13,791 nucleotides of DNA from a virus (taxonomy: Duplodnaviria; Heunggongvirae; Uroviricota; Caudoviricetes), in IMG/VR virus record IMGVR_UViG_2690316105_000002, positions 1 to 13,791 of that record; one strand, 5' to 3'. The notes below the pieces were generated by a model. It saw only the letters and a program-made list of their open reading frames with translations, had not been told where the DNA came from and did not search any database. Of this stretch, positions 2,891 through 13,147 are shown in pieces. The position numbers were made by a program, and so were the translations under genes. Each line of letters opens with the position of its first letter. Within the stretch, counting starts at the first letter, position 1.

Positions 2891-3155
2891 TTTAGTGGCC
2901 TCCTTAACTGTTTTAGTCTGCGATTACCAGTTAGTAGCTGGTGATCGGGTGTCAACTAGAGCCAGTTAAGAAGCTCCGGGCATATTCCCCTTACGGGTAT
3001 TGTATTACGCCTCTCCACCCGATCTTTGTACGGATGTGCCGTATTTCAGGCATAAAAAAGCCGCAAGGCTATCGGGTGCGGATGACCGCTTAACTGTTTC
3101 TAGTGCGATCATCTTGCAACAATGCAGGTTGCTTTGTCAATATCCCGGATATCAG

Positions 3156-11798: not shown

Positions 11799-12310
11799 GC
11801 GAGATTAATTATCAGGAAGGGCATGAAACGGTAGGGCAGGCAAAACCAGTTGCATGGCGATATCGCTATGTGAAAAAAAGCGTTACGGACTTTCAGGAGA
11901 AGATGTGGGTTGGTGACTGGAAATATGTACCGACAAAAGAGGATTGCAACGACAGGCCGAGCTATGAGATTCAGGCCTTATTCACTGCCCCGCCAGTCCC
12001 GGTGACATCAGAAGGACTGGTTAAAGCCGTGCGCTTTTATGAACAGGTAAAGCGTGAAAATCCGCCAGCTGAAACAGGAGCATGGAAAGATGCTGTTGAT
12101 TGGGTACTCAAAGAGGCCTGCTGTGCTGCCATTCTGGGTAAAGCTGACAATCCACTAGCATCCAGTAATCAGGTTAGCGAATTAACAATGTGGGTTAAAC
12201 GACTGGTCAGTCAACTGAAAAAAGCTCAGCCGGACTGCAAATTACCGGAGAAGGCGATGGATTACCTGAAACGAAATGGACTGATAAGCGTGGAGGATGT
12301 TTTACGATGA
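11795..12310 (+). CDS. hypothetical phage protein, 171 aa
   Basis: ORF track; ATGA overlap with the upstream ORF. Confidence 0.6.
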   Translation: MSEINYQEGHETVGQAKPVAWRYRYVKKSVTDFQEKMWVGDWKYVPTKEDCNDRPSYEIQALFTAPPVPVTSEGLVKAVRFYEQVKRENPPAETGAWKDAVDWVLKEACCAAILGKADNPLASSNQVSELTMWVKRLVSQLKKAQPDCKLPEKAMDYLKRNGLISVEDVLR

Positions 12311-12390
12311 CCTGGTCTGAAGCATTCACAACGGTAGGAATCGCACTGGCGGTGGCGCTGGTGGTGTATTCGATTTGCCGCTGGGGATAA
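12307..12390 (+). CDS. possible small hydrophobic peptide, 27 aa (single predicted membrane helix)
   Basis: Hand-translated MTWSEAFTTVGIALAVALVVYSICRWG; ATGA overlap with the upstream stop. Short, so weakly supported. Confidence 0.3.
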   Translation: MTWSEAFTTVGIALAVALVVYSICRWG

Positions 12391-12397
12391 AAACGGT

Positions 12398-12425
12398 TTG
12401 CGGGAAAAGGAGAGTTAAGTAGAAT
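12398..12425 (+). promoter_or_regulatory. candidate promoter of the hok mRNA
   Basis: TTGCGG (12398..12403), 16-nt spacer, TAGAAT (12420..12425); predicts a roughly 420-nt transcript ending at the terminator at 12850. Confidence 0.4.
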
Positions 12426-12601
12426 TGCAGCGGGTGCTTGAGGCTATCTGTCTCAGGCATGAACACCAAAAGGCAGATAGAGAAAAGCCCCAGTTAACAT
12501 TACGCGTCCGGCAAGACGCTTAACATTAAGCTGAGGCTCAATCCATGCTGAACACATGTAGGTTAGCCTCTTACGTGCCGAAAGGCAAGGAGAAGCAGGC
12601 T

Positions 12602-12757
12602 ATGAAGCAGCAAAAGGCGATGTTAATCGCCCTGATCGTCATCTGTTTAACCGTCATAGCGACGGCACTGGTAACGAGGAAAGACCTCTGTGAGGTACGA
12701 ATCCGAACCGGCCAGACGGAGGTCGCTGTCTTCGTAGACTACGAATCTAGAGAGTAA
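12602..12757 (+). CDS. hok: Hok/Gef-family type I toxin, 51 aa
   Basis: MKQQKAMLIALIVICLTVIATALVTRKDLCEVRIRTGQTEVAVFVDYESRE: membrane helix followed by the conserved LVTRKDLCEV-RIRTGQTEVAVF core of Hok/Gef toxins as recalled; long structured leader and 3' UTR; in-frame upstream ATG at 12545. Confidence 0.85.
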   Translation: MKQQKAMLIALIVICLTVIATALVTRKDLCEVRIRTGQTEVAVFVDYESRE

Positions 12758-12828
12758 GAGTGACCAGGCGAGGGAGAAATCCCTCGCCACCTCTGATGTG
12801 TCAGGCATCCTCAACGCACCCGCACTTA

Positions 12829-12850
12829 ACCCGCTTCGGCGGGTTTTTTG
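12829..12850 (+). terminator. rho-independent terminator of the hok transcript
   Basis: CCCGC-TTCG-GCGGG hairpin with UUCG tetraloop followed by TTTTTT (12844..12849). Confidence 0.75.
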
Positions 12851-12979
12851 TTGCGATTTTCAACGCGTTTGAACTTTCAGAATGCGCAGGAATAGAATCA
12901 AAAACACTTAAGTAGCGCGCAGGGAGAAGAGGGATGGACCCCTTAAGGGGAAGTGTTAAAAGTTCACAGGCTTTTTGTT

Positions 12980-13147
12980 ATGAACGTTAAAGAATTGATT
13001 GTTGTGCTTTCTTTACCAGGTCACTACGAAGTGATAACGCTCGAAAATGGGGAGTTTATCGTAACGCCATTACCTCCTGATGCAATTCTAATCAGCAAAG
13101 AATCGCACGCAGATTCTGTAAGCCACTTCTGTATTAAAGAAGACTAA
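12980..13147 (+). CDS. hypothetical small protein, about 55 aa (alternative GTG start 12953)
   Basis: ORF track 12953..13147; the ATG at 12980 is overlapped by an 18-codon upstream ORF (12934..12990) that has a strong AGGGAGAAGAGGG ribosome-binding site. Confidence 0.45.
   Translation: MNVKELIVVLSLPGHYEVITLENGEFIVTPLPPDAILISKESHADSVSHFCIKED

Follow-up and report, generated by a model that had tools for sequence, protein, structure and literature searches.

Toward the end of the window, by which we mean the whole 13,791-nt stretch of viral DNA analysed here, a small reading frame resembling the Hok toxins raises the questions of whether it belongs to a complete type I toxin–antitoxin locus, where the antisense RNA of such a locus would lie, and how an upstream start codon in frame with hok should be understood. 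The first-pass annotation, made from the sequence letters, had described the open reading frames, a 3′ hairpin, a terminator and a pair of minus-strand promoter hexamers, all of which were recovered in place. We assign a probability of about 0.9 to the reading that positions 12398–12852 are a complete, intact hok/mok/sok type I toxin–antitoxin cassette of the hokD/hokW subtype, situated in the early region of a Rac-like lambdoid prophage. Cassettes of this kind are already known, and the present one is an ordinary prophage copy of hok/mok/sok. Its protein-coding part consists of the following elements:

12602..12757, plus strand: hok toxin gene, 51 amino acids (MKQQKAMLIALIVICLTVIATALVTRKDLCEVRIRTGQTEVAVFVDYESRE), Pfam PF01848, with 48 of 51 residues the same as in HokW
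12545..12757, plus strand: mok leader frame from the list of open reading frames, 70 codons, in frame with hok and ending at the common stop
12588..12592, plus strand: hok Shine-Dalgarno sequence AGGAG, 9 nt 5′ of the hok ATG, read from the sequence

The toxin matches the Pfam profile PF01848 (HOK_GEF) with 80.6 bits (cutoff 22) over the full length of 42 profile positions, and it has the hydrophobic stretch (residues 6–24) and the cysteine (Cys30) that characterize the Hok/Gef family. The mRNA leader at 12432–12607 on the plus strand matches the full Rfam model RF01794 (positions 1–157) with 118.7 bits, above the gathering score of 59, this being the kind of search for hok/sok RNA families that the first-pass annotation had proposed. 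Together with the 95% identity of the cassette to the annotated mokW/hokW/sokW genes of VT2-Sakai, these scores bear out its claim of a hok-type type I toxin locus. A match to an Rfam 'sok' model had been expected on the minus strand; this was ruled out, since RF01794 matched the plus strand only and gave no minus-strand match even at E ≤ 1. The model thus represents the sense strand of the hok leader, which confirms the locus and leaves Sok to be delimited by other means.

Loci annotated as hokD or Hok/Gef share 94–96% DNA identity with the present one, and matches are present in 4,931 of 5,426 complete E. coli genomes, with a median of 2 and a maximum of 9 copies per genome. The neighbouring genes follow the order recE, a cI/cro-type pair, replication genes, DUF1627, DUF977, Hok, DUF1367, DUF1364 and DUF1133. 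This location in the early/nin-type region, upstream of rem/Q-type genes, and the near-identity to known members place the cassette within the hokD/hokW subtype. In RefSeq such copies are labelled 'Hok/Gef family protein' only, without mok or Sok, and the main use of the present analysis is annotation, as it supplies exact positions of the antitoxin RNA, the two promoters and the regulatory boxes.

For the comparative analysis, the contig scan of genomes contributed 30 loci only, and the diversity set therefore comes mostly from viral contigs. Motif conservation was counted over 80 unique loci and covariation was assessed in an alignment of 29 loci; the frame statistics refer to unique sequences (80 loci) and not to independent lineages. 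Sequence and family identity, element positions, predicted folds, and the conservation and covariation of these folds are direct observations on the window and on this set. Some related loci in the set lack tac, fbi or the mok ATG.

The mok ATG at 12545 is preceded by its own Shine-Dalgarno sequence, GAGG at 12533–12536, and lies 57 nt (19 codons) upstream of the hok ATG in the same frame, with zero stop codons in between. The start codon is kept in 75 of the 80 unique loci and the surrounding TGAGGC in 70, while AAGGAGA, which contains the hok Shine-Dalgarno sequence, is kept in 74. The in-frame position of this upstream ATG had been called unusual in the first-pass annotation, a judgement that does not hold, as the same 57-nt in-frame spacing occurs in mokC/hokC, in mokW/hokW and in 64 out of 80 unique related loci distributed across Escherichia, Photorhabdus and Pantoea. 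An out-of-frame mok, with a spacing 1 nt longer, was found in nine of the 80 loci (e.g., in Rac MN652886 and in a P1-like phage), and mok is likewise out of frame in mokB/hokB of E. coli K-12. An in-frame mok is thus the rule for the hokC/hokD/hokW clade and the R1-type out-of-frame arrangement is a minority, which corrects a misjudgement that is likely to recur.

The uninterrupted frame could also mean that there is no separate Mok, and that initiation at 12545 yields a 70-aa Hok with a basic N-terminal extension of 19 residues, Sok directly controlling this long isoform instead of acting through translational coupling only. The lack of a stop codon before the hok ATG and the retention of the in-frame state in 64/80 unique loci from three genera agree with such a product, but close relatives are out of frame by 1 nt (9/80), which speaks against strong selection on the frame. 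Moreover, the extension is hypervariable at codons 2–5, and the conservation of codons 6–19 is explained at the nucleotide level by their overlap with dcb, the Sok promoter and the hok Shine-Dalgarno sequence. In plasmid R1 it is the translation of mok that matters and not its product (PMC9841398). We consider a long Hok isoform improbable and continue to treat 12545..12757 as a mok leader frame.

The transcript that would carry both frames is delimited by the following elements:

12398..12403, plus strand: candidate −35 box TTGCGG of the hok mRNA, weak, with a 16-nt spacer to the −10 box
12420..12425, plus strand: −10 box TAGAAT of the hok mRNA, 6 nt upstream of the putative +1 at 12432 and aligned with TATAAT of K-12 hokC
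12432..12852, plus strand: predicted full-length mok-hok mRNA of ~421 nt, its ends placed at the start of the Rfam model (12432) and at the T-run of the terminator
12767..12788, plus strand: 3′ UTR hairpin of 9 bp, GGCGAGGGA-GAAA-TCCCTCGCC, −19.7 kcal/mol, z = −4.5
12828..12852, plus strand: intrinsic terminator of the hok mRNA from the terminator scan, stem 12828–12845 (AACCCGC-UUCG-GCGGGUU) followed by a U-run

TTGCGG is the commonest variant of the hok −35 box (24/80 unique loci), and the −10 box is kept as a TAnnAT-type hexamer, with TAGAAT in 44 loci, TAAGAT in 10, TATATT in 7, TAAAAT in 5, TATAAT in 4 and TACAAT in 3. The predicted full-length mRNA folds at −176.3 kcal/mol (z = −7.5), in agreement with the long structured leader noted earlier. 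The perfect 9-bp stem with a GAAA loop ahead of the terminator also stood up to comparison, being 96.4% paired across 29 loci with four compensatory pairs. In R1, toxicity is lost when mutations destabilize the last stem-loop of Tr-hok (PMC9841398); by analogy, the hairpin at 12767–12788 likely protects the 3′ end of the processed (active) mRNA and could stop its trimming. Sub-threshold matches of isrK and rsmX to the 3′ UTR were not accepted as family membership. The isrK alignment (31.2 bits at a gathering score of 50) rests on the hairpin with a GAAAUC-type loop and on the terminator.

The elements that would switch this mRNA between a closed and an active form are as follows:

12432..12443, plus strand: tac, the translational activator element (GGGUGCUUGAGG), with fbi, ucb and a local metastable partner as alternative partners
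12450..12460, plus strand: candidate local partner of tac, predicted hairpin 12434–12444 :: 12450–12460 in the minimum free energy (MFE) fold of 3′-truncated RNAs
12485..12495, plus strand: ucb / anti-Shine-Dalgarno element (AAGCCCCAGUU), paired with the mok Shine-Dalgarno region in the full-length RNA or with tac in the truncated RNA
12533..12570, plus strand: Sok-target hairpin of the active form, mok Shine-Dalgarno GAGG 12533–12536 :: dcb GCCUC 12566–12570, from the Rfam consensus structure
12809..12821, plus strand: fbi, the fold-back inhibitory element (CCUCAACGCACCC), paired with tac in the MFE fold

The tac–fbi helix comprises 12 bp in the MFE fold and is 94.3% paired across 29 loci with three compensatory pairs, the compensatory changes being UA↔CG in six loci, AU↔GC in two and GC↔AU in one. 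This covariation substantiates the suggestion that the mRNA is regulated by fold-back. The full-length structure as a whole is 88.8% paired across the 29 loci, versus 41–46% in slid controls, with 19 pairs changed on both sides. In the full-length MFE fold, ucb is engaged with the mok Shine-Dalgarno region through 12486–89 :: 12535–38 and 12491–95 :: 12529–33. The Rfam consensus structure pairs tac with 12485–12491 instead. The tac–ucb and SD–dcb helices are 99% and 100% paired, respectively, in the 29 loci and both are invariant; because they never vary, they provide no covariation evidence. Energetically, both helices are accessible. The upper stem of the Sok-target hairpin contains the mok AUG and closes a 7-nt loop, CUGAACA (12548–12554); six of its pairs are changed on both sides, but only 69% of the alignment cells are paired. 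The tac–ucb pairing is the MFE structure for the leader alone, and in constrained folds of the 361-nt truncated RNA it lies 2.4 kcal/mol above the MFE, the 3′-truncated RNA preferring the local 5′ hairpin. In R1, tac forms a metastable hairpin with the region just downstream (PMC9841398).

A Sok-like antisense RNA over the upstream start at 12545 had been expected in the first-pass annotation without a confident position, together with a candidate minus-strand promoter, TTGCCT and TAACCT separated by 17 nt. Transfer from sokW, sokC and sokB places the predicted RNA at 12553→12483, giving the following elements:

12583..12588, minus strand: Sok promoter −35 box TTGCCT, adjoining the complement of the hok Shine-Dalgarno sequence, read from the sequence
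12560..12565, minus strand: Sok promoter −10 box TAACCT, 6 nt upstream of the transferred transcription start
12483..12553, minus strand: predicted Sok antisense RNA, 71 nt, transferred from sokW; its 3′ end may lie at 12477 by transfer from sokC/sokB

The annotated 5′ ends of sokC and sokB from K-12 and of sokW from VT2-Sakai all transfer to 12553, the 71-nt VT2-Sakai sokW maps to 12553→12483, and the northern probe for sokW, YO-592, ends at the position equivalent to 12553. The predicted Sok fold (−29.9 to −32.6 kcal/mol, z = −5) has a free single-stranded 5′ tail of 14 nt, a long hairpin and a UUUU tail. The Sok −10 box matches the consensus at 3/6 positions only, and a consensus promoter scan missed the promoters of both hok and Sok, which are weak by hexamer score. 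Both promoter calls therefore rest on homology and conservation. By consensus alone the Sok promoter would not go beyond chance, and its reality rests on conservation, on the annotated Sok starts and on a published −10 mutant. On the plus strand, the −10 box reads AGGTTA or AGATTA in 69/80 unique loci, and the −35 box reads AGGCAA in 62/80 or AGGTCAA (TTGACC) in 12/80. The promoter region is that of the VT2-Sakai sokW, base for base. The −10 hexamer is the one mutated by Takada et al. 2021 (PMC8621323), where primers YO-421/422 replace TAGGTTA (equivalent to 12559–12565) and the resulting promoter-less sokW unmasks HokW toxicity. A chance antisense promoter without any Sok was considered and rejected, the identical sokW promoter having been mutated experimentally. 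By homology, we predict for this copy a cis-encoded Sok with its own promoter over the mok initiation region.

The transcripts, processing, toxicity and role of the present copy would follow those of its close relatives. Under this model, a weak constitutive promoter (−10 at 12420–12425) would produce a stable ~420-nt mRNA (12432–12852) that is closed by tac 12432–12443 :: fbi 12809–12821. In the closed form, the mok ribosome-binding site GAGG (12533–12536) would be held by the upstream box at 12485–12495, allowing neither translation nor Sok binding. Slow 3′ trimming toward the 9-bp hairpin at 12767–12788 would remove fbi, upon which tac would pair with the upstream box and the Sok-target hairpin (12533–12570) would form. 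Normally the unstable 71-nt Sok would then bind and the duplex would be destroyed. If Sok is absent, ribosomes would start at the mok AUG (12545) and open the hok start site, leading to synthesis of Hok, presumably a 51-aa inner-membrane toxin; hence, when Sok synthesis stops, the stable mRNA pool would yield Hok.

The closest characterized relative is hokW–mokW–sokW of VT2-Sakai (Sakai prophage 5; AP000422), to which positions 12531–12659, covering the Sok promoter, the Sok 5′ tail, the mok start, the hok Shine-Dalgarno sequence and the hok start, are identical. Both copies have the 57-nt in-frame mok, the CUACGAA context of Tyr47 and a location in a lambdoid prophage. Over the Sok-encoding stretch (12483–12553), the single difference from sokW is at 12530, and Hok differs from HokW at 3/51 residues (V20A, E50R and K51E). 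V20A falls in the membrane helix and is absent from the other 79 unique loci. Relative to VT2-Sakai, the 12451–12471 hairpin of the leader carries three substitutions and a 1-nt indel, four differences in all, and the substitutions in the 3′ hairpin are compensatory. The Sakai sequence is divergent beyond fbi, where the present copy has a canonical intrinsic terminator at its end. The genome position differs as well; in the Rac-like phage analysed here, the cassette is flanked by the replication genes on one side and by the rem/Q region on the other.

In E. coli K-12, hokD (relF) of the Qin cryptic prophage encodes a toxin of the same clade, HokD differing mainly at the C-terminal end, and its 3′ UTR hairpin, fbi, terminator and downstream neighbour type (rem, then the Q region) are as in the present cassette. 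However, K-12 hokD has lost its entire leader to relBE sequence, and with it tac, ucb, mok and the Sok gene; the present copy is complete. The replacement made K-12 hokD useless as a reference for Sok, and sokC, sokB and sokW were taken instead. The K-12 hokC (gef)/mokC/sokC locus likewise has an in-frame mok 57 nt upstream and a common hok stop, sokC has its 5′ end at the homologous site, and tac, ucb, SD and dcb are kept in both, with Hok protein identity of ~76–78% for the hokC-type loci of the set. Unlike the present copy, K-12 sokC lacks an insertion of ~18 nt (a GC-rich hairpin tip, roughly 12502–12519), and hokC is chromosomal rather than prophage-borne, with its 3′ end cut off by IS186.

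The hok/mok/sok system of plasmid R1 has the same architecture and a published mechanism, including tac/fbi closure, the ucb/dcb switch, 19 mok codons before hok, an antisense Sok over the mok start and a protective 3′ hairpin (PMC9841398). It differs in its out-of-frame mok, the mok ATG (116–118) and the hok ATG (174–176) being 58 nt apart (PMC9841398), and HokW is only 44% identical to R1 Hok (PMC8621323). The R1 system is plasmid-borne and acts in post-segregational killing.

The experiments on hokW–sokW suggest what such a cassette may do in a prophage. HokW is toxic and is neutralized by sokW expressed from its own promoter, the sokW −10 mutant loses protection, sokW is detected by northern blot, and RNase III and Hfq contribute partially (PMC8621323). 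RecA-dependent prophage induction removes sokW, HokW appears, and the phage yield is 2-fold higher with the locus (PMC8621323), a role in assisting lysis that is known from this one study of one phage only. By analogy, induction of the present prophage may lead to Hok synthesis, faster lysis and doubled phage release. We regard lysis timing or prophage maintenance as a plausible function of the cassette, as already documented for hokW–sokW.

A main role in host defence or prophage addiction, instead of in assisting lysis, is possible, if doubtful: infection with a lytic phage or curing of the prophage would then end Sok synthesis, and the stable hok mRNA would kill the cell through abortive infection or post-segregational killing. 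R1 hok/sok, as cited in PMC8621323, lowers the plating efficiency of T4 by 42% and plaque size by ~85%, the VT2-Sakai record annotates mokW and hokW with 'prophage maintenance', and hok genes are ~4-fold enriched in prophages (bioRxiv 10.1101/2025.08.07.668861). On the other hand, the latter study found hok not enriched near defence systems, and neither role is known for a prophage hokD/hokW-type locus. The molecular mechanism would be the same for all these roles, so sequence analysis cannot separate them.

It is unlikely, in our assessment, that the cassette, intact in sequence, is silent in its host as a passenger, anti-addiction or remnant module with no role in prophage biology. Such a copy would resemble the chromosomal hok loci of E. 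coli, which, in work cited by bioRxiv 10.1101/2025.08.07.668861, were reported to be incapable of post-segregational killing. Decay is common, since several related loci have lost tac, fbi or the mok ATG, and with a median of 2 copies per genome and a maximum of 9, redundancy or cross-talk is plausible. However, all regulatory elements are intact in this copy, hokW–sokW, a near-identical locus, functions at its native site in the prophage, and 42 of 45 diverse Hok peptides tested were toxic (bioRxiv 10.1101/2025.08.07.668861).

A further candidate element is located near the 3′ end of hok:

12739..12745, plus strand: candidate TadA-type editing motif CUACGAA, containing the Tyr47 codon TAC (12740–12742) with the editable A at 12741, Tyr→Cys

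The heptamer is the same as that of the edited site in K-12 hokB and is predicted to form a 7-nt loop on a 4-bp stem (12735–38 :: 12746–49). The sequence features of TadA substrates described in PMC5630033 are all present, namely TACG (12740–12743), the predicted loop and a hard-coded Cys30, and the homologous tyrosine is reported to be edited in hokC/D/E (PMC5630033). Two more speculative proposals, which we rate as decidedly unlikely, are that a 70-aa Hok isoform has its own activity or topology, Sok controlling two isoforms, and, separately, that the tRNA-Arg-like CUACGAA loop is an efficient TadA substrate. If the latter were true, TadA editing of Tyr47 to Cys, with a disulfide to Cys30, would gate toxicity.

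The hok-type toxin locus reported by the first-pass annotation, each of whose listed features was recovered where it had been placed, was recognized by both protein and RNA family models. The Hok product scores 80.6 bits against the Pfam family HOK_GEF (cutoff 22), and in the Rfam search that the annotation had suggested the 'sok' model (RF01794) matches 12432-12607 on the plus strand over its whole length, scoring 118.7 bits (gathering score 59). The minus strand has no RF01794 match, even at E ≤ 1, and the alignment runs from GGGUGCUUGAGG to the hok AUG. Because it is confined to the plus strand and ends at this AUG, RF01794 describes the hok mRNA leader, with the Sok complement inside, and not Sok itself. 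The main features of the cassette are as follows.

12602-12757, plus strand: Hok ORF, 51 aa
12583-12588 (TTGCCT) and 12560-12565 (TAACCT) in plus-strand positions, minus strand: predicted Sok promoter hexamers, 17 nt between them
12767-12788, plus strand: 3' UTR hairpin GGCGAGGGA-GAAA-UCCCUCGCC, 9 bp, -19.7 kcal/mol, z = -4.5
12828-12845 plus a T-run, plus strand: intrinsic terminator, from a terminator scan

The window as a whole represents the early part of a Rac-like lambdoid prophage, with the gene order recE, cI/cro-type pair, YdaT, replication genes, DUF1627, DUF977, Hok, DUF1367, DUF1364 and DUF1133/Q; prophages are known to be enriched in hok genes (bioRxiv 10.1101/2025.08.07.668861). 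Megablast matches to the 463-nt region of the locus were found in 4,931 of 5,426 complete E. coli genomes, at a median of 2 and up to 9 places per genome, the best of them (94-96% identity) being labelled 'Hok/Gef family protein' or 'hokD'. With the active-form pairings conserved but invariant, the cassette otherwise has every defining feature that can be checked in silico. It falls within the hokD/hokW subtype found in lambdoid prophages, whose annotation goes back to the Sakai genome and whose characterisation dates from 2021. The original finding is real and correctly identified, and the cassette is an ordinary one that was known already. It may serve in lysis assistance, in addiction or in phage exclusion. 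Near-identical Hok loci also occur on very short contigs, one of 275 nt labelled Acinetobacter idrijaensis and one of 431 nt labelled Xanthomonas pisi, as well as in PP818812.1 ('Actinobacillus phage vB_Apl-pPE4'), which has 92-94% identity to the E. coli Rac-like region studied here; these copies look like contamination or mislabelled hosts and not true host range.

A locus with 95% identity, annotated with mokW, hokW and 'SokW antisense RNA', is found in phage VT2-Sakai (AP000422). The two are identical over 12531-12659, which comprises the Sok promoter, the Sok 5' tail and the mok and hok starts. Sok differs from sokW by a single base (12530), Hok differs from HokW by three residues (V20A, which is absent from the other 79 unique loci, E50R and K51E), and the leader shows four differences at 12451-12471 (three substitutions and one 1-nt indel). 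The 3' hairpin differs from that of hokW by compensatory changes, and the window copy, unlike hokW, has a canonical terminator after fbi, the 3' partner (12809-12821) of the mRNA 5' end. The K-12 hokD locus is incomplete, whereas the window copy is complete.

The proposed minus-strand promoter matches the consensus weakly and was missed by a simple promoter scan, and therefore its hexamers alone are not beyond chance. It is on homology and published experiments that the predicted promoter is considered real: the sokW promoter is identical, and the sokC, sokB and sokW starts all transfer to 12553, 6 nt downstream of the -10 hexamer. The annotated 3' ends of K-12 sokC and sokB both align to 12477, and VT2-Sakai sokW (71 nt) corresponds to 12553->12483 in a pairwise alignment. 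The predicted Sok-like RNA, previously expected but not placed, can now be assigned with confidence to the latter interval on the minus strand. The 71-nt RNA is predicted to contain a 14-nt single-stranded 5' tail, a single long hairpin and a UUUU tail (-29.9 kcal/mol), and folding of its 77-nt version gives z = -5. Relative to sokC and sokB, both strands have an insertion of ~18 nt (12502-12519) that adds a GC-rich tip, GCGUC-loop-GACGC, to the leader hairpin and hence also to the Sok terminator hairpin; hokD/hokW-type loci share this insertion, which hokC-type and Photorhabdus loci lack.

Experiments on hokW-sokW (Takada et al. 2021, PMC8621323) demonstrated that HokW is toxic and is neutralised by sokW expressed from its own promoter, and that a mutation of the sokW -10 element unmasks toxicity, with growth partly restored by sokW in trans. 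Both RNAs were detected by northern blots, and RNase III and Hfq contribute partially. Upon RecA-dependent prophage induction sokW is removed, HokW appears in the inner membrane ~1 h ahead of endolysin, and ~2-fold more phage is produced when the locus is present. As inferred from primer sequences and the pairwise VT2-Sakai alignment, the mutagenic primers YO-421/422 replace TAGGTTA at window positions 12559-12565, changing minus-strand TAACCT to GAGCCG, and probe YO-592, used for sokW, ends at the position corresponding to 12553. On this reading, the -10 proposed in the first-pass annotation is the very element mutated in that study.

Exactly 57 nt (19 codons) separate the hok ATG from the upstream ATG at 12545, which opens a 70-codon mok frame that shares the hok stop. 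This in-frame arrangement had been called unusual, a view that does not hold, as K-12 mokC/hokC and VT2-Sakai mokW/hokW have the same spacing and common stop, and so do 64 of 80 unique related loci, including Photorhabdus, Pantoea and E. albertii. The remaining loci have an out-of-frame spacing of 58 nt (9/80), a 72-nt in-frame start (1/80) or no ATG (6/80). Plasmid R1, the archetype, is of the out-of-frame type (mok ATG 116-118, hok ATG 174-176; PMC9841398), as are K-12 mokB/hokB, phage Rac MN652886 and a P1-like phage. Seven of the nine 58-nt loci have a one-base-longer Sok -35 (plus AGGTCAA or GGGTCAA, minus TTGACC, versus AGGCAA/TTGCCT), a variant also found in four 57-nt loci. Codons 2-5 of the mok extension are hypervariable, and codons 6-19 overlap dcb (12566-12570), the Sok promoter and the hok SD, which accounts for conservation of the extension at the nucleotide level. 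This agrees with the R1 result that translation of mok matters and its product does not (PMC9841398). Among related loci, codons 2-5 (12548-12558) form the most variable stretch of an otherwise conserved leader, with Mok residues LNTC, SHKC, LYTR, LDTC, HSNI and others. It is also where the Sok 5' tail and target-loop recognition region lie, and it may provide copy-specific Sok-hok pairing in multi-cassette E. coli genomes (median 2, up to 9 copies).

The structured leader and fold-back mRNA expected earlier are borne out by the predicted full-length RNA (12432-12852; -176.3 kcal/mol, z = -7.5). In its MFE structure tac, the mRNA 5' end (12432-12443), pairs with fbi, the mok SD region with 12486-12495, and the mok start region with 12796-12808. 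An alignment of 29 non-redundant loci (Escherichia, Kluyvera, Photorhabdus, Pantoea and viral contigs) shows 88.8% pairing for this structure versus 41-46% in slid controls, the former percentage being inflated by the structure's derivation from the window itself, which does not affect compensatory changes; both sides change at 19 pairs. Pairing in the tac-fbi helix reaches 94.3%, with three compensatory pairs, including tac 12435 U->C matched by fbi A->G in six loci. For the active form, the Rfam consensus gives the pairings tac-ucb (12432-12439 :: 12485-12491) and mok SD-dcb (12533-12537 :: 12566-12570), which are 99-100% paired and invariant, and thus carry no covariation evidence. Position 12435 is the sole variable tac base and is bulged in tac-ucb, a pattern consistent with tac having to satisfy two partners. 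When the leader is folded by itself tac-ucb is the MFE; in a 361-nt truncated RNA, which favours a local 5' hairpin (12434-12444 :: 12450-12460), it is 2.4 kcal/mol less stable than the MFE. A similar metastable tac hairpin is known in R1 (PMC9841398).

The 9-bp GAAA-loop stem, present as originally described, shows 96.4% pairing and four compensatory pairs in the 29 loci. It occupies the position of the last stem-loop of the truncated R1 mRNA, whose destabilising mutations abolish toxicity (PMC9841398), and by analogy it is probably protective. The 3' UTR (12768-12849, plus strand) also has a sub-threshold full-length match to Rfam isrK, the sRNA from the Salmonella Gifsy-1 prophage that binds Hfq (31.2 bits, gathering 50; E = 6e-5 in a 551-nt search); it spans the 9-bp hairpin, fbi and terminator, with the two hairpins accounting for the alignment.

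Tyr47 is encoded by TAC within CUACGAA (12739-12745, A = 12741), a predicted 7-nt loop on a 4-bp stem (12735-38 :: 12746-49). The same 7-mer occurs at the TadA-edited site of K-12 hokB, which is reported to match the tRNA-Arg loop (Bar-Yaacov et al. 2017), whereas K-12 hokD has UUACGAA. The tabulated 7-mer window 12738-12744 (ACTACGA) is common to 34 of the 80 unique loci, including hokW. Editing of A12741 would convert Tyr47 to Cys, opposite the hard-coded Cys30.

Elsewhere in the window, Rfam sRNA-Xcc1 (RF02221) matches 2935-3024 on the minus strand (67.4 bits, gathering 53; E = 1e-10). Judging by an alignment with the closest E. coli genome, this match is close to a Rha-family regulator gene in the leftward early region. 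A 27-codon hydrophobic ORF (MTWSEAFTTVGIALAVALVVYSICRWG; 12307-12390, plus strand), with no Pfam match and unannotated in the related records examined, overlaps the stop of an upstream 171-aa ORF by ATGA and ends 8 nt short of the hok -35; primer YO-432, upstream of hokW, contains a near-identical start (ATGACCTGGCCTGAAGC; PMC8621323). Just past the hok terminator lies the only sigma-70-like site given by the scan, TTGAAC-18-TAGAAT (12869-12898, plus strand), which precedes a small ORF at 12953-13147 (or from ATG 12981), where relatives carry rem.
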